Source: an uncultured Candidatus Berkelbacteria bacterium
GTDB taxonomy: Bacteria; Patescibacteriota; UBA1384; XYA2-FULL-43-10; CAINNR01
DNA length: 54,863 bases
Assembly (NCBI GenBank): GCA_903851235.1
Contig: CAINNR010000028.1
Span: 1 to 54,863, forward strand
Direction of reading: 5' to 3'
The translations under genes and the position numbers were made by a program. This document shows, piece by piece, positions 41,516-48,000 of the stretch. A model generated the notes under the pieces. It saw only the letters and a program-made list of their open reading frames with translations. It was not told the origin of the DNA and did no database searches. Within the stretch, counting starts at the first letter, position 1, and each line of letters begins with the position of its first letter.

Positions 41516-41660
41516 CTCATTCCCTCTTTTGAACAGTAATTGAGTTAGCAACTTGTATCAGTCGCTTTTGTGCCGTCATAAGACGGCGATGGCATCATAT
41601 CAGTATGTTTAGTTGTTGTCAACACTTTTGCGAAAATCTAGCAGAGTCTAGATAATTTCG

Positions 41661-41735
41661 GACAAATCTGGAATATAAATACAGTCGGTTGAATTCTGAA
41701 AAATAGTTCTAACATTGTTTACGATGCAGTATCGG
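41661..41735 (+). repeat. Copy 1 of a shared intergenic sequence module upstream of the island genes.
   Basis: GACAAATCTGGAATATAAATACAGT...AGTTCTAACATTGTTTACGATGCAGTATCGG shares ATATAAATACAG, AGTTCTAAC and TTTACGATGCAGTA with the copies at 42607 and 43405. Confidence 0.5.
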
Positions 41736-41865
41736 CTCCTTCTGTCGTTTCCAGAAAGACCTTTATAGTTGATCATAGTATAGTATAGAGCCCAAAAATG
41801 GTTGACATGTTACTAATTATATGCTAGAATGTCAGAACAATCCACTTCCCTGAAGGAGAGTCCAA

Positions 41866-42522
41866 ATGCGAATCCTGGTAATCGATGACAGCAGGACCAA
41901 CCGAGACGCTGCCGTAGTCCAGCTCGCCGGCCACGATCTTATTATGGCTGCAACTTACGACGAAGGGGCCGACCACTTCAAGGTCAGGTATGATGACGCT
42001 AACGTCAAACGCTTGCTCGCCGAGCGCGGCTTCATCAAGAAGGAAGGTTGGGATGCTGGCTACTACGCGGCGGAGAGGGTGGCGATGCGGGAGTCGGTCA
42101 TCCCCTGCGGCTTCGATGCGGTGTTGGTCGACCTGTTGATGCCGGCGAGTGAAAACGCCCAAGGCTCCAACGGCGCGCCGTATGTCGGGCAGGAAATGCC
42201 GGTTGGGATCTTCCTGGCGCTGTTGGCCGCGAAATCGGGTGTCAAGCATGTCGCTCTCTTCACCGACAGCGACCACCACTCTCATCCTGCCTCGGCTTGC
42301 TTCGACGCCTTCAACCCCAACGGGGAGGACACCCCAACGCCGTTGCACGTCGAGGGCGCAGACGTCCTACTGTGTAACAACCGCAACTGGATCGGGCACT
42401 TCAAGCCCGACGATTTCTGCCAGCAGGTTGAGTGTTGGTGGGAGGGCAACGAACCGTCAGTGGCTGCCAAGGACTGGCTCTCACTTCTCAACTACCTGAT
42501 CGGCGAGTCGGCCACCGACTAG
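41866..42522 (+). CDS. Stand-alone response-regulator receiver (REC) domain protein with a non-canonical C-terminal extension, GC-rich.
   Basis: MRILVIDDS, a phospho-acceptor region VLVDLLMP, and GAGGAGAG RBS. A terminator follows at 42544..42596. Confidence 0.55.
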   Translation: MRILVIDDSRTNRDAAVVQLAGHDLIMAATYDEGADHFKVRYDDANVKRLLAERGFIKKEGWDAGYYAAERVAMRESVIPCGFDAVLVDLLMPASENAQGSNGAPYVGQEMPVGIFLALLAAKSGVKHVALFTDSDHHSHPASACFDAFNPNGEDTPTPLHVEGADVLLCNNRNWIGHFKPDDFCQQVECWWEGNEPSVAAKDWLSLLNYLIGESATD

Positions 42523-43623: not shown

Positions 43624-44517
43624 ATGAAATATTTTGCTAGGGTTTCAGTAGCAATTATATTGGCTGTTGCGTTTGTATTTGTTTTAAATGGGCCGATTGT
43701 TGTATTTGCGGCAACTACGCCGGTTATGGGGATGACTAACACATTCAGTATTCTCTCCAGTACCTACACCAACACCGCGGCGGGGACAACTATTGGTGGA
43801 GATCTTGGGTATACCACCGGACCGGCAGTGGCGCCGACGGTAAGTGGCACAACACATGTGGCCGATGCGACATACAACCAAGCAGGGATAGATCAAGCTT
43901 CCGCTTTGGCTAATCTAAATAGTCAGCCAGCCACATTTAATTTCGCGCCGGGAGCAATTGATTTAGCCACCGACACGACACATGGTTCAGTTGGTATTTA
44001 TGCGCCAGGAGTCTATGCGATAACTGGTGCCGCCAATGTTGGTGGAGGTGGAACCATTACTTTAAGCGGTGATGGAACATATATCTTCAGAATGACCGGT
44101 GCGCTTGACACATCGGCCAGCTCTGTGGTTACTTATGCCAATGGCGCGTCACCCTGTAATGTCTTTTGGACACCGGGTGCGGCCACCACACTTGGTGCCA
44201 ACTCTACGTTCACAGGAACTGACATTGATGCTTCCGGTATTACTATCGGCAATGAGGTAACTTGGACAGGGAAAGCTTTGGCATTTGGCGGAACAGTTTC
44301 GACTGATGCCGATACAATTACCGCGCCAAACTGCGCAGCCACAGAAACAGCCGCAGCAGCCGCAGCAGCCGCAGCAGCCAGAGCAGCCGCAGCAAAATTG
44401 CCAAATACCGGAGTTGCTCCTTATCAAAATAGCATCCCGTGGAGCATTGTTATATTTTCTGGTATCTTTGCCATTTCAATTTTGTTTTATATTGTTCGAA
44501 GGAAAAAAACTATTTAA
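43624..44517 (+). CDS. DUF3494 (ice-binding-like) beta-helix surface protein with signal peptide, poly-Ala linker and C-terminal LPXTG sortase anchor.
   Basis: Signal MKYFARVSVAIILAVAFVFVL. DUF3494-type blocks FSILSSTYTNTAAGTTIGGDLGYTTGPAV, ATYNQAGIDQASALANL and ASPCNVFWTPGAATTLGANSTFTG...TITAPN. LPNTG followed by a hydrophobic helix and RRKK. Confidence 0.65.
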   Translation: MKYFARVSVAIILAVAFVFVLNGPIVVFAATTPVMGMTNTFSILSSTYTNTAAGTTIGGDLGYTTGPAVAPTVSGTTHVADATYNQAGIDQASALANLNSQPATFNFAPGAIDLATDTTHGSVGIYAPGVYAITGAANVGGGGTITLSGDGTYIFRMTGALDTSASSVVTYANGASPCNVFWTPGAATTLGANSTFTGTDIDASGITIGNEVTWTGKALAFGGTVSTDADTITAPNCAATETAAAAAAAAAARAAAAKLPNTGVAPYQNSIPWSIVIFSGIFAISILFYIVRRKKTI

Positions 44518-45019
44518 TCTAAGCATTCTGAAATTTGCATAGACTTCTTAGAAATTTATGCAATCAAAAGTTTTGAGACGAACACGCTGATGATTATTGT
44601 TGTTGAGTTTGTCTCGCTTCCGATATTGTCTTTTAGTGCCTAAAAATTTAAGCCGAAGTGGTTCATCATTACTCTCTATAAAAGCTGGCATTCGATCGAA
44701 ACAGGAACAGCCAAGTATCGGGATCGTGCCGCTACATCTGAAAATTCCAAATATTAAGATTGATGTTGCGATTGAGCCTGTGCGAGCCATGATCACCTGG
44801 AGCAGTCATGGTTTGGCGTGTCGTGTGACTTGCATCAGCAAATTTTACCTGACGGTTGAACTTAAATTTGTCTCTTTCAGAGCGATCTTTTTATTATAGC
44901 AGTCAAGACGATTGAACTTGGGGGTTATTTAACAATAATCATTTTGTGCTACAATCATAATTAATATTAATAAAAAGATTGGTCAAGTTTTTGGAGGGGA
45001 TATAGACTACTTAAAGAAA

Positions 45020-48000
45020 GTGTTTTCAAAATTCAGGTCTGGCCCGAGAGTCCTTCAACAAATTCAGAATTCAGAGAGAGTACAAAAGAGCAAAAAAACT
45101 GTACTAAGTTTGGGTTTTGTGCTTCTTGGAATTTTTCTAGTTATCACCATTTTTGGTGTTTATTTTTACATTAAAATGGTCAATGCCGCACCCTTGGTTG
45201 CCTCGAATGTGGCTATTATCGGTACGCCAAATGTCGGGCAAACATTAACCGGCACTTATACTTATACCAATAATCCTTGGACCTCTGTTGGGTCTGTCGG
45301 ATTTTCAAATAATCAAGCAGACTATACTTCGTTAGCCATAGATGCAAGTGGAACTCCATATGTAGCGTATAAAGATGCGGCCAACTCCGGCAAAGCCACG
45401 GTTATGAAATTCGATGGTGCAAATTGGGCTCCAGTAGGGATCGAAGGATTTTCAGATAATACAGCTTATTACATTTCGCTCGCTTTAAATCCAAGCGGAA
45501 CTCCATATGTGGCGTATCAAGACAATGATCGTCTGACTGTCATGAAATTTAATGGCACAGATTGGGTGGCGGTCGGAACGCCGGGGTCATATTCGCAAGC
45601 ATATTATTTTTCGCTGGCAATTAATGCAAGTGGAACTCCTTACGTGGCATTTAGAGATGAAGCGCACGGTTATAAAGCGACTGTAATTAAATTTGACGGA
45701 ACAAACTGGAACATCGTGGGAACTCCAGGATTCTCGGATAATCAAATAAGTCGCATCCCTCTTGCTATTGACTCAAGCGGAACTCCATATGTGGCGTATC
45801 AAGACACCTCTAATAAAGCCGTCGTGATGAAATTTGATGGTACAAATTGGATTGCGGTTGGAACAAAAGGATTTTCAGACCAAGATGCGACCAACATTTC
45901 TCTCGTCATAAATTCCAATGGAACGCCGTATGTTGCTTATATAGACTCGGCGCATTCCACTGGAGCGACCGTGATGAAATTTGATGGCACAAATTGGATT
46001 GCGGTTGGGACAAAAGGATTTTCAGACGGAGGAATAGATTATCCTTCTTTGGCTTTTGACGCCAGTGACACGCCATATGTGGCGTTTTCAGATTGGTCAA
46101 CAGTGGAGGGAGGTGGCGGAGCGGCGACGGTCATGAAATTTGATGGCACAAATTGGCTGCTGGTAGGTAATAAAGGAATTATTGATGGTCGAGCGAATTA
46201 TGTTTCGCTCGCCATTTATAACGGGGCTCCGTATGTGGCGGAAAGTGGTGAGTCGTATGGTGGAGATGCGATCGTAATGCGGTATGACACTCCCGATCCC
46301 GAAGGCGCTTCAACTTATAAATGGTATAGAGATGGAGTTGAGATTCAAGGAGCAACAGTGCAAACTTATACGCTAACACCGGTAGATGCGGGAAAAACAA
46401 TAAAATTTGAGGTAACGCCAATATCGCAAGGAAGCGTTCAAGGAAATCCGGTGCAAAGTAATGGGTTGCTGATAAATTCATTTCCAACAGCTAAAAATGT
46501 GACAATAACTGGAACACCAAATGTCGGTTCAGTATTAACCGGTCATTACACTTATTTTGATGTAGATATAACCGGGGAGGTAGTAGGGTCACCGGGATTT
46601 TCAGATGGACAAGCGGATTACATTTCGGACGTGATAGATTCAACCGGAATACCATATGTTGCCTACGAAGATGAGGCACACGACAATAAGGTTACAGTTA
46701 AGAGATTCTTCGGAGGAAGTTGGGAGACGATAGGATTGCCGGGATTTTCAGACGGAGAAGCAAATTTTGTTTCACTTGCCATTAATTCAAATGGAACTCC
46801 ATATGTGGCCTATATGGATAACTCGGATATTGGACAAGCTACTGTAATGAAGTTTGATGGTTTTAGCTGGGTACCCGTGGGAGCGCCAAGATTTTCAGCC
46901 GGACAAGCAGTCTATGTCTCTCTTGCTATAGACCCAAGCGGGACACCATATGTTGCGTATATGGATGATGGAAACTCTGACAAGGCTACAGTAATGAAAT
47001 ACAGTGGGGGTTGGACAGCAGTTGGAGGTGCAGGGTTCACAGCAGGAGGAGTGAATTTTACCTCCCTTGCCTTAGATTCCAGCGGAACACCGTATATAGC
47101 TTTCAAAGATTACGCAAATTCGCAAAAGGCCACAGTAATGAGATTCACTGATGGAAGTTGGGAGTCGGTAGGCTCGCCGGGATTTTCAGATGGACAATCA
47201 TATTTTAATTCTCTTATGGTAGACTCAGGTGGAACACCTTATGTTGCTTATGCGGATGATGGTAACTCTGATAAAGCCACAGTGATGAAGTTTAGTAGTG
47301 GGAGCTGGGTTGGGGTTGGAGCGCCAGGATTTTCAAAAGGATTAATAAGCTCACCTTCTCTTGTTAAAGATTCAAATGGAACCCTATACATCAGTTATTC
47401 GGATAGCGCGAATAATAATGGGGCTACGGTCGTAAGATTTGATGGCACAAACTGGCAATCATACGATCCGGCCGGGCAAACTGCCTATACTTCACTCGCC
47501 ACTTATGGCGGAACAATATATCTCGCATACCAGGATGGAGATAACTCCAACATGGCTACAGTATTGAAGTCGATTCCTATTGACCCCGAAGGCGCCTCAA
47601 CCTACAAATGGTATAGAGACGGTGAAGAAATTTCAGGAGTAACAGACATAAACTATAGCCCAACATCAGCAGATATCGGAAAAACAATTAAATTTGAGGT
47701 AACACCGGTAGCACAATCAGGATCAACGCCGGGAAATCCATTGCAAAGTGCGGGATTGGTCATCGCAGATATCACGACACCTTCAACTTCCGCTGCTTTG
47801 TCAACAACTTCACCGGCCGCGTCCGGCAGTGCGACTCCAAGTAGCAACAATCCGATTGTTTCAACAAATCCAACTCCCCTGACCTCGCCGGCTGCGCCCG
47901 CTCTTTTCGATCTTACTTCCGAGTCGGCGCAACCGGCGCGACCGAATATAATTCTTTTTATTGTTCTTGCAGTTGCCGCCGGAGCAATACTGACGGTGTC

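Follow-up and report, generated by a model that had tools for sequence, protein, structure and literature searches.

Spacers S0 to S4, which follow a tRNA-Lys gene of an uncultured CPR bacterium, hold five differently decayed copies of one composite unit of ~150-200 bp. We read these units, with a probability of roughly 0.6, as att-like junctions in an array of cassettes that arose through repeated insertions at tRNA-Lys, the inner copies being in decay. The window referred to below is the whole stretch of DNA analysed, 54,863 nucleotides in length.

Composite unit and its copies in the window

A sequence-only reading had described short modules shared by the spacers upstream of four consecutive genes (S1-S4), and this sharing is genuine and greatly exceeds what chance would give: module A is present at 41665, 42609 and 43408, with 0 chance matches expected, TTTACGATGCAGTA at 41718 and 43461, CTTTCAGAGCGAYCTTTTT at 43487 and 44874, and TATAGAGCAG..AGAC at 42674 and 44893, and a repeat search pairs S1 with S3 at 75% identity across 69 nt. 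The modules do not stand in varying order, as had been proposed, being colinear, (L)-A-B-C-(L)-D-E, with deletions particular to each spacer, so that S4 lacks A-B-C and S2 lacks C. The claim that no comparable motif occurs elsewhere in the window was wrong, as a fifth partial copy, L-D-E, directly follows the tRNA gene. Apart from the copies listed here, pattern searches and nhmmer found none across the 55-kb window.

38373..38447, + strand: tRNA-Lys (UUU), the array anchor (ARAGORN and Rfam)
38448..38497, + strand: S0, fifth partial copy (L-D-E), directly after tRNA-Lys; L is ATTAAATTTGTAG and E is AGTAGAGCAGTCTAGCAG; D hairpin GTAGCTC-TTG-GAGCTAC plus T6 at 38457-38479, terminator-like in the terminator scan
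41663..41795, + strand: S1 (nhmmer E 1.3e-14 against the family profile; alignments); A 41663-41685, B 41699-41713, C 41714-41735, decayed D hairpin 41744-41766 (only -3.0 kcal/mol), E relic 41766-41795
42545..42698, + strand: S2 (nhmmer E 2.2e-5); long terminator hairpin and T-run of the preceding gene 42545-42595, L 42596-42609, A 42610-42629, B 42642-42656, E 42672-42698
43364..43528, + strand: S3 (nhmmer E 3e-6; terminator scan); gene terminator 43364-43397, L' 43397-43409, A 43406-43428, B' 43442-43456, C 43457-43478, D hairpin plus T6 43483-43505 (-3.7 kcal/mol), E' 43506-43528
44851..44919, + strand: S4, a relic (37/48 identical to S0; repeat families D3 and D13); E-end GACGGTTGAACTT 44851-44863, L 44861-44872, decayed D and T-run 44871-44892 (-3.3 kcal/mol), E 44893-44919; A-B-C missing

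The unit consists of three parts: a conserved arm of ~60-65 nt (A, B and the first part of C), a stretch of ~10-20 nt imitating the 3' end of the upstream tRNA (the end of C), and post-tRNA sequence comprising L, a terminator hairpin with T-run (D) and E. The arm consensus is TCAAATCnGGAATATAAATATACTC, a variable stretch, AAAAATAGTTCTAAC and then ~10 less conserved nucleotides. An nhmmer profile built solely from other genomes finds S1, S3 and S2, at the E values listed above, and has no further match in the window. Identity is 73-80% among the window copies, versus 65-84% between them and copies from other genomes, and reaches 77-86% when S0 is compared with S2, S3 and S4.

Decay is evident in the inner copies. 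S0 has a strong D hairpin (-9.3 kcal/mol, z -3.4), those of S1, S3 and S4 are weak, and a gapped alignment of S2 with the unit of locus L060 shows a 37-nt deletion that removed C, L and half of D; B of S2 lies within the loop of a hairpin at 42635-42665 (-8.9 kcal/mol), from which a T-run extends to 42671. In S3, the A-B-C block has ACTTTCAGA at either side. The spacers have a GC content of 0.30-0.38, versus about 0.41 for the genome, and the gene order MVP-S1-REC-S2-hyp183-S3-DUF3494 recurs in two independent ENA assemblies (L001 and L002).

Link to tRNA genes

At its 3' end, the unit imitates the corresponding end of the tRNA that precedes it on the same strand, which is Asn, Trp or Lys depending on the subtype, and the post-tRNA sequence is carried on inside the unit. 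Subtype i ends in TGCGGAGCCA, identical at 10/10 nt to the 3' end of a tRNA-Asn 1.8 kb upstream in L031, and a tRNA-Asn is likewise found upstream of the unit in L037 and L051. The subtype ii end, CCCGTGC plus terminator, agrees at 40/49 positions with the end and flank of the L035 tRNA-Trp, a likeness seen again in L043. In L060, the locus most closely related to the window, the unit terminates in GGTGTAGTACCA, and its tail from GTACCA onwards equals window positions 38442-38485, that is, the last 6 nt of tRNA-Lys and the next 38 nt, at 43/44 positions. The tRNA gene lies upstream of the unit on the same strand in 6/6 loci, a count that takes in only those with a genuine tRNA gene inside the fetched DNA, window included. 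A tRNA-Ser called by ARAGORN in L053 was considered spurious and left out, since it falls inside an ORF, downstream of the unit.

Within the window itself, the C modules match the tRNA-Lys 3' end loosely, at about 8/12 positions, and no exact repeat of that end is found. In the relative L065, the tRNA-Lys is 98.7% identical to that of the window; at 137 nt downstream of this gene begins an exact 17-nt repeat of the tRNA-Lys 3' end, and the flank of the gene differs from S0. We read S0 as an attL-like junction, in which the tRNA is followed by element-derived DNA.

Cargo genes and promoters

38606..41551, - strand: cargo gene 1, 981-aa protein with MVP_shoulder/SPFH domains (Pfam), GC 0.60
41866..42522, + strand: cargo gene 2, divergent REC-like, 218 aa, GC 0.60
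42795..43346, + strand: cargo gene 3, 183 aa, GC 0.45, no Pfam match
43624..44517, + strand: cargo gene 4, Ice_binding (DUF3494) surface protein (Pfam 3.8e-23)
45020..48121, + strand: large repeat-rich surface protein gene after the last relic, S4 (Pfam repeats)
41622-41594, - strand: predicted sigma-70-like promoter TTGACA-17-TATGAT in S1 (consensus scan, 11/12)
41802-41830, + strand: predicted sigma-70-like promoter TTGACA-17-TAGAAT in S1 (consensus scan, 11/12)
42735-42763, + strand: predicted sigma-70-like promoter TTGACT-17-TATTAT of the 183-aa gene (consensus scan)
43549-43576, + strand: predicted sigma-70-like promoter TTTGCA-16-TAAAAT of the DUF3494 gene (consensus scan)

The cargo GC of 0.60 (0.45 for the 183-aa gene), compared with about 0.41 for the genome, marks it as foreign. 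In relatives whose LepA is 84-87% identical, synteny is kept as far as LepA and the cassettes are absent, with neither cargo gene 1 nor a homologue of the 45020 gene downstream of LepA; the 45020 gene is either old flank or else older cargo. Concerning the gene at 41866, previously called a REC gene, it has no Pfam match and hence no Pfam REC match, and is REC-like only through homologues named response regulator or matching PF00072. Its family is widespread in CPR, with a PF00072 match in some members. The unit again comes after the REC-like homologue in L047 and L060, and the 177-aa gene that follows in L060 is not homologous to the 183-aa gene of the window. Two true stand-alone receiver genes are found nearby, at 49126 and 49746, and their proteins lack a DNA-binding domain by Pfam. 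No integrase or other recombinase family was detected among the 29 window ORFs scanned.

The two predicted promoters of S1 are divergent (41594..41830); the one on the - strand would serve the MVP-like gene and the one on the + strand the REC-like gene. In the consensus scan, the modules lie upstream of separate predicted sigma-70-like promoters and are not promoters themselves.

The arm family in other genomes

Patterns fixing parts of A and B retrieved about 25 further copies of the arm family (A, B and the first part of C), of which about 22 come from metagenome contigs, mostly of groundwater and sediment, and one from a Moraniibacteriota MAG. The arm is conserved across lineages and three target tRNAs, which is unusual and, to our knowledge, not a property of ordinary att arms. 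Elsewhere the units sit between co-oriented, functionally unrelated genes, with HTH_17, ArsR, HlyD, Fic, DUF6512, DUF2585 and exonuclease (Pfam) and an MsrA/PMSR-type gene beside them. A unit-gene-unit arrangement is seen in L043, L047 and L060, and a REC-like gene is flanked by, or precedes, units in three loci. No recombinase family recurs beside the units among the top 25 families listed (87 ORFs), and the 5-kb L035 island contains none. The unit of L036 has a type III hammerhead ribozyme 30 nt upstream of it.

A proposed cassette array at a tRNA gene and alternative readings

In the proposed mechanism, small gene cassettes would have been inserted repeatedly at the tRNA-Lys 3' end or into earlier units, by a recombinase that may be site-specific or RecA acting on the repeated units. 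S0 would be the tRNA joined to element DNA, S1-S3 the attP-like junctions of neighbouring cassettes, composed of arm, core and arm, and S4 an old relic; the array would grow at its tRNA end, and the units would now do little except separate transcription units. The data establish the anatomy of the unit, its family and its tRNA link, and they show that the cargo is patchily distributed, of foreign composition and equipped with separate promoters. Because no recombinase was found, the insertion mechanism is one that we infer. Counting against the proposal are this missing recombinase, the loose match of C to tRNA-Lys, the arm conservation and the divergence of the window copies, as do the retrieval of the family through patterns that preset parts of A and B and the small number of loci, six, with a genuine tRNA gene in reach.

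The closest known counterparts are genomic islands at tRNA genes and tandem island arrays, which employ tyrosine integrases and whose attL and attR are direct repeats of the tRNA 3' end; examples are the Prochlorococcus islands, with their repeated tRNA 3' fragments, and the capture of genes at tRNA genes of archaea. General background is given in PMC6917214 and PMC4891358. As in such islands, the window array is anchored at the 3' end of a tRNA gene, its boundaries are marked by repeats of the tRNA end and adjoining sequence, its cargo is of foreign composition and missing in relatives, and several units stand in tandem, the inner ones decayed. Unlike them, it has no integrase beside the tRNA or within the array, its cassettes are tiny (one or two genes), its repeat includes an arm of ~60-65 nt conserved across lineages and three target tRNAs, and in the window the tRNA end is imitated only loosely.

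Integron cassette arrays, in which attC sites stand between single-gene cassettes, offer another, unlikely, explanation: each cassette would carry a foldable recombination site and the recombinase would be encoded elsewhere, block B (AGTTCTAAC) and an inverted partner in E (GTTAGAACT) corresponding to R'' and R' of attC and the tRNA flank to attI. The inverted partner does lie ~70 nt downstream of B in L034 (a perfect 9 bp), L035, L052, L047b and L036, the pair bounding an imperfect palindrome of about 85 nt; TTCTAAC and GTTAGAA match RYYYAAC and GTTRRRY, which we take to be the attC consensus, at 6/7 positions each, and B' and E' of S3 are altered jointly (CCACT and AGTGG). Also integron-like are the cassettes of one or two genes, mostly co-oriented, the related, uniform sites of 60-150 bp between genes of varied GC, and the lack of an integrase adjoining the arrays. 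However, neither an IntI-like gene nor attI was seen, and the inverted 7-9 bp motif is absent from many members, namely subtype i and half of subtype ii, being direct instead in L043b. Integron cassettes are promoterless, unlike these, whose spacers of 270-500 bp have their own predicted promoters; nothing in attC corresponds to the strongly conserved A block, and attI x attC recombination predicts no long identity to a tRNA end and flank.

Mosaic repeats and mobile regulatory cassettes, such as the neisserial NIMEs/dRS3 and Correia elements, pneumococcal BOX, enterobacterial BIMEs and the PeSL (promoter-plus-stem-loop) cassettes of T4-type phages, are also modular, hairpin-bearing intergenic sequences with partly deleted versions between genes, and are thought to be recombination anchors for gene swapping. 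Neisserial elements feature in PMC1797815 and PMC3898611. That the units are a non-autonomous, terminator-bearing repeat of the MITE, BOX or BIME style, accumulated here by chance, is improbable. Modular, partly deleted intergenic copies, a family in several CPR lineages, the ACTTTCAGA flanks of S3 and an inverted B/E motif that could act as terminal repeats in some members would all fit it. But contigs of 101 kb and 218 kb gave only one exact-pattern match, and the 3' part varies according to which tRNA lies upstream, which is unexpected of a freely transposing element. Mosaic families are high-copy, scattered across a genome or phage, not tied to tRNA 3' ends and built on defined inverted repeats or promoters, whereas the units here are few in number and clustered, lie downstream of any tRNA gene within reach, and have the predicted promoters outside the repeat. 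The suggestion that a repeat element seeded the spacers came closer than the regulatory one, but a generic dispersed MITE is not what is found, as neither consistent terminal inverted repeats nor target duplications were seen and no other copies occur in the 55 kb.

It is quite improbable that the unit encodes a small RNA, structured or regulatory, or forms a 3'-UTR element, whose transcription together with the upstream gene or following it would stop at the D hairpin. The unit is almost always co-oriented with the flanking genes, often starts 18-40 nt past a stop codon and has a hairpin with T-run behind it; some compensatory changes are seen in a local hairpin after B (CGTCG/CGATG versus CGCTG/CAGTG), and the hammerhead ribozyme of L036 could be added to these. 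Against this, RNAalifold returned no consensus structure, hand-drawn helices had 74.7% of cells paired versus 75.0% in column shuffles, with an equal covariation score, no Rfam family matched, either at the gathering score or with E values allowed up to 5, the hairpins are decayed in the inner window copies, and the tRNA-end mimicry and flank identity would be left unexplained.

A shared promoter or operator co-regulating four surface or stress genes, perhaps via the neighbouring REC proteins, for which the position of the modules 150-215 bp upstream of four consecutive + strand genes and the two nearby receiver genes would speak, is very improbable, since a separate consensus-like promoter lies between the modules and each gene, module content is unequal among the four spacers, the same core adjoins unrelated genes in other genomes, the S0 copy follows a tRNA gene and faces a gene 3' end, the receiver proteins lack a DNA-binding domain, the 3' part copies tRNA 3' ends and flanks, and the inner copies decay. 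The observation from which this regulon was proposed is partly confirmed, and its interpretation, through the repeat-element alternative, partly supported.

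Repeat units in the window

The short modules shared by the spacers of the window are, with a probability of about 60%, repeats that mark the junctions in an array of gene cassettes, with a tRNA gene as its anchor. The sequence between 41000 and 45600 was read and each module was compared with dinucleotide-preserving shuffles. With up to 3 mismatches allowed, module A (GATCCGGAATATAAATACAG) has three matches in the window (41665, 42609 and 43408) and 0 in the shuffles. In the window, TTTACGATGCAGTA has two exact occurrences, CTTTCAGAGCGAYCTTTTT and TATAGAGCAGWCRAGAC occur twice each, and a repeat search aligned spacers S1 and S3 at 75% identity over 69 ungapped nt. 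The order MVP-S1-REC-S2-183aa-S3-DUF3494 recurs in two other ENA assemblies, and is hence no assembly accident. The modules that a previous, sequence-only reading had reported as common to the spacers are thus real, given the repeated matches, their absence from the shuffles for A and the order kept in independent assemblies. Their order, described there as varying, is actually colinear, (L)-A-B-C-(L)-D-E, with internal deletions that differ from copy to copy (A, B and the first part of C form a conserved arm, and D is a hairpin followed by a T-run). Nor are they confined to the spacers of the four genes for which they were described, since a fifth partial copy (S0) lies at 38448-38497, directly 3' of tRNA-Lys.

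Compared with the full unit of L060, the contig of the closest REC-like homologue, S2 is missing 37 nt, corresponding to C, L and half of D. Folding energies of the D hairpin separate the strong versions of S0 and L060 (-9.3 kcal/mol) and S2 (-8.9) from the decayed ones (-3.0 to -3.7 kcal/mol) of S1, S3 and S4, the relic before the 45020 gene. The CTTTCAGAGCGAYCTTTTT module is, in decayed form, the terminator hairpin of the S0/L060 type (CTCTTGGAGCTACTTTTTT) found after the window tRNA-Lys, while the module TATAG..CAG..AGAC..TTGAACT is the stretch 3' of that hairpin. Window copies share 73-80% identity among themselves and 65-84% with copies elsewhere; being about as far apart from each other as from the latter, they suggest that each cassette may have carried in its own unit. 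After the DUF3494 gene, about 340 nt (44518-44860) are apparently non-coding, with a doubtful 100-aa ORF at 44597-44899 inside, and may hold further decayed unit remains.

Full unit of L060, by module
A: TTTGGAATATAAAC
B: AAAATAGTTCTAAC
C: GTTGTCTATGGTGTAGTACCA
L: ATTAAATTTGTAG
D: CTCTTGGAGCTAC + T6
E: ...TATAGACC...TTCGAACT

A family of units in other genomes

Conservation of the modules extends beyond the window. A degenerate pattern of A plus the A-run, too strict because it permitted only Y at a position occupied by A in many copies, matched one genuine locus of the genome collection, which belongs to a Moraniibacteriota MAG (L022), and a joint A-B pattern gave 27 metagenome loci, of which ~22 are real, many from groundwater and sediment projects. 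The family so recovered has a conserved core of ~75 nt, made up of TCAAATCnGGAATATAAATATACTC, a variable stretch, AAAAATAGTTCTAAC and ~20 nt more, usually followed by a hairpin and T-run. A profile built solely from the other loci finds S1 (E 1e-14), S3 (3e-6) and S2 (2e-5) in the window, and nothing else there. A full-text literature search with the core strings returned nothing relevant.

Copies also recur in series outside the window. In L043 and L047 the profile detects a second copy in the same orientation as the first, at a distance of 1.0 and 1.65 kb. The copies enclose one or two genes, and one of the two in L047 is a 35% identical homologue of the window REC-like gene. L060, whose REC-like protein is 64% identical, shows a REC-like gene, a unit, a different gene and another unit. 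The window 183-aa gene has no homology to the genes in the same position of L060 or L047.

tRNA ends copied by the unit

The key result, as far as sequence comparison goes, is that the unit appears to copy tRNA ends and their flanks. In L060, the end of C resembles the end of the window tRNA-Lys (GGTGTACCA), and from GTACCA on, the unit matches the final 6 nt of that tRNA plus the next 38 nt at 43/44 positions. Units of subtype i end in TGCGGAGCCA, which is the 3' end of the tRNA-Asn that L031, L037 and L051 carry on the same strand at 0.5-1.8 kb upstream (10/10 in L031; 34/44 in L037, flank included). Those of subtype ii end in CCCGTGC, a terminator and a G-rich stretch, equivalent to the end and flank of an upstream tRNA-Trp (40/49 in L035, flank included; 28/30 for the terminator in L043). 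An upstream tRNA of the matching type, on the same strand, is present in all six loci with a genuine tRNA gene in the fetched DNA, i.e. Asn in L031, L037 and L051, Trp in L035 and L043, and Lys in the window, where S0 follows directly 3' of tRNA-Lys (38373-38447). A seventh ARAGORN call (tRNA-Ser, L053), inside an ORF and downstream of the unit, was excluded as spurious.

Within the window, the 3' end of tRNA-Lys is nowhere repeated exactly and is imitated only by the C modules, and the L-D-E flank is repeated at 77-86%. L065, a relative whose LepA is 87% identical, carries a tRNA-Lys 98.7% identical to that of the window. In L065, 17 nt of the 3' end of this tRNA recur exactly from 137 nt downstream of the gene (within 12468-12790, - strand), followed by a different terminator. 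It would follow that tRNA-Lys is an insertion site in this clade. The different flank in L065 also argues that the L-D-E after the window tRNA-Lys is not the ancestral flank, so that it would be DNA brought in by an insertion. Just upstream of the L065 tRNA there is a broken 5' tRNA-Lys fragment with a GC-rich palindromic insert (GCACCGCTACCTGCCTGCCGGCAGGCAGGGCTCAATGGTAGCGC).

Island setting and cargo

The window comprises one contig of 54,863 bp in full, and its LepA shows 77-81% identity to proteins named Candidatus Berkelbacteria, and at most 87% to Patescibacteria proteins. Synteny among its relatives (L065-L068) is kept up to LepA, and all cassette genes downstream are absent from them. 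GC content is ~0.41 for the window and 0.60 for 38.6-42.5 kb, which comprises the two tRNA-proximal genes and begins just 3' of tRNA-Lys; the spacers between the high-GC genes have a GC of 0.30-0.38. The cargo combines atypical composition with absence from close relatives. Spacers are 272-502 bp long, and each cassette has its own predicted sigma-70-like promoter.

Cassette genes and predicted promoters of the window
38606-41551, - strand: MVP_shoulder/SPFH protein, 981 aa (Pfam: Major Vault Protein shoulder domain 3e-22, Vault_3 and SPFH/Band_7 weaker), GC 0.60
41622-41594, - strand: sigma-70-like promoter of the MVP-like gene
41802-41830, + strand: sigma-70-like promoter, between modules and REC-like start codon
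41866-42522, + strand: REC-like gene, 218 aa, within the 0.60-GC stretch
42735-42763, + strand: sigma-70-like promoter, between modules and start codon of the 183-aa gene
42795-43346, + strand: 183-aa gene
43549-43576, + strand: sigma-70-like promoter, between modules and DUF3494 start codon
43624-44517, + strand: DUF3494 gene

A vault-protein-like gene is unusual for a CPR genome of this kind, whose contig has a GC of 0.41. Annotation of the 41866 gene as REC holds in part: it has no Pfam receiver match of its own, while its homologues are annotated as response regulators or as CheY-like, some of them with a match to PF00072. Its 3' flank is better kept than the gene itself, since a long hairpin 3' of it (window 42545-42595; L060 2001-2055) shows ~94% identity between the two contigs versus 75% for the coding sequences. 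Within the DUF3494 gene, a 9-nt tandem repeat (GCAGCAGCC x5, 44334-44396) corresponds to an alanine run before the putative cell-wall anchor.

Proposed origin of the array

If the modules are junction repeats, S0 would represent the tRNA joined to element DNA (attL-like), and S1, S2 and S3 the junctions of successive cassettes, each composed of the A-B arm, the tRNA-end imitation C and L-D-E (attP-like). The arm-core-arm order of S1-S3 is the product to be expected of tandem integration, and S4 would be an old relic that kept only L-D-E. Arrays of this general kind are known, but the form here is unusual, with tiny cassettes, no nearby integrase and a conserved arm paired with different tRNA ends. 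Across lineages and three tRNA targets, conservation of the arm far exceeds that of ordinary att arms. No integrase or other recombinase family was found in the 29 window ORFs scanned or in the five-gene L035 island, and no recurrent one among the best 25 families from 87 ORFs of the other loci.

A live alternative as to how the cassettes moved is recombination of the RecA type, with no dedicated recombinase. It is suggested by strains of a single Moraniibacteriota population, where a 228-aa gene is present (L056 3971-4963) or absent (L055 5519-5654). Where present, the gene lies between two direct repeats of 81 nt (80/81 identical), each a copy of a terminator spacer, and the gene-less strain has one copy. 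Gain and loss of cassettes by recombination between repeated spacers hence occurs with other repeats too.

We regard as unlikely a dedicated, integron-like platform for cassette capture at tRNA genes of CPR bacteria, whose recombinase would be encoded elsewhere in the genome. It may consist of cassettes of one or two genes with their own promoters, bounded by a conserved recombination site with the ~75-nt core, and the end of this site may imitate the 3' end of the target tRNA, in Asn, Trp and Lys versions. Integrons comprise an intI integrase, an adjacent attI and a Pc promoter, followed by promoterless, tightly packed cassettes; their attC sites consist of an imperfect palindrome of 57-141 nt bordered by RYYYAAC and GTTRRRY as inverted core sites. 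Some family members recall attC, in that B has an inverted partner ~70 nt downstream and encloses an imperfect palindrome (TTCTAAC...GTTAGAA, 84 nt end to end, in L034; similar in L035, L052, L047b and L036). This partner is missing in subtype i and half of subtype ii, and window copies have only TTGAACT. A tyrosine recombinase (intI) was not found in the 29 window ORFs scanned, and the window cassettes, in contrast to those of integrons, have predicted promoters of their own and long spacers. Should such a platform exist, it would parallel integrons in function while using an unrelated site, and it would explain the uptake of foreign genes of very different GC by reduced genomes.

The proposal that the modules are the shared promoter and operator of a regulon found no support, since predicted promoters lie between modules and start codons, so that the modules are not promoters themselves, and elsewhere the core lies beside unrelated genes (HTH_17, ArsR, HlyD, Fic, DUF6512, DUF2585, RNase_T exonuclease and PMSR/MsrA-type). 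Unrelated downstream genes, and promoters between unit and gene, also argue against a riboswitch or leader. The other suggestion, a miniature repeat element, comes nearer to the data, but not in the form of a generic dispersed repeat: MITEs and dispersed repeats (BOX, BIME, NIME, Correia) have terminal inverted repeats, target-site duplications and many scattered copies, whereas unit copies are clustered, with none outside 38.4-44.9 kb of the 55-kb window, no consistent terminal repeats were seen in them, and contigs of 101 kb and 218 kb gave only one exact match.

A structured RNA was rejected: RNAalifold predicted no consensus structure for the unit, three hand-drawn helices (P1, P1b, P2) had 74.7% of cells paired, compared with 75.0% after column shuffling, and an equal covariation score, and Rfam 15 gave no gathering-score match over units in the window or 16 loci and none at E up to 5 in 12 loci. 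Three viral-collection scans for a phage or plasmid attP gave chance matches only, one inside a coding gene of a 383-kb contig. By eye, a small ORF is disfavored on both strands (in the forward frame there is a terminal TAG, but the variation is non-synonymous; the reverse ATG, MSIFIFQI, is missing from many copies), the core has no acceptor or T-arm pairing of a tRNA-like fold, and the spacing within A is unfit for a sigma-54, ECF or sigma-70 promoter, which the scan also puts elsewhere.

If the reading as junction repeats is right, the spacers record the one-by-one uptake of foreign genes, including vault-protein-like and REC-like genes of 60% GC, beside a tRNA gene in a very small CPR genome. 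With the conserved arm as a marker, such cassette arrays can be searched for in uncultured lineages, whose mobile elements and recombinases are poorly known. Were the arm the site of a dedicated recombinase, this would amount to a new gene-capture system. Repeated upstream motifs in islands should accordingly be read as regulon operators only with caution.

Additional features

Outside the cassettes, the window has two stand-alone receiver genes in tandem (49126-49548 and 49746-50183). The last ~65 nt of a 263-aa gene (48840-48905) are repeated before the second one (49650-49725), which points to a segmental duplication. Next to it, ~570 nt (50190-50760) with no ORF >64 aa look by eye like a putative PAS-type sensor gene interrupted by stop codons. 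For LepA, the listed ORF (36092-37960) begins 29 codons upstream of the start of nearly all homologues (593 aa).

Near units of other loci, L036 shows a type III hammerhead ribozyme match (458-514, + strand; 36.5 bits, short of the 48.5 of the gathering score; E 1e-4), in which CUGACGAG, GAAA and three helices are recognizable by eye; it lies 30 nt upstream of the unit core, with a B-like AAAAGTTCTAAAT between. In L034 and L035, ~100-180 nt downstream of the core, an ArsR-family gene is preceded by a palindrome (TTCTAATATAAATTAGAA / ACTAATATAAATTAGTA) that is probably its operator, and a TTGACA-17-TATAAT promoter abuts the E part of the unit. In L044, a fluoride riboswitch (2712-2773, 45 bits) located ~320 nt downstream of the unit precedes the gene of a small membrane protein.
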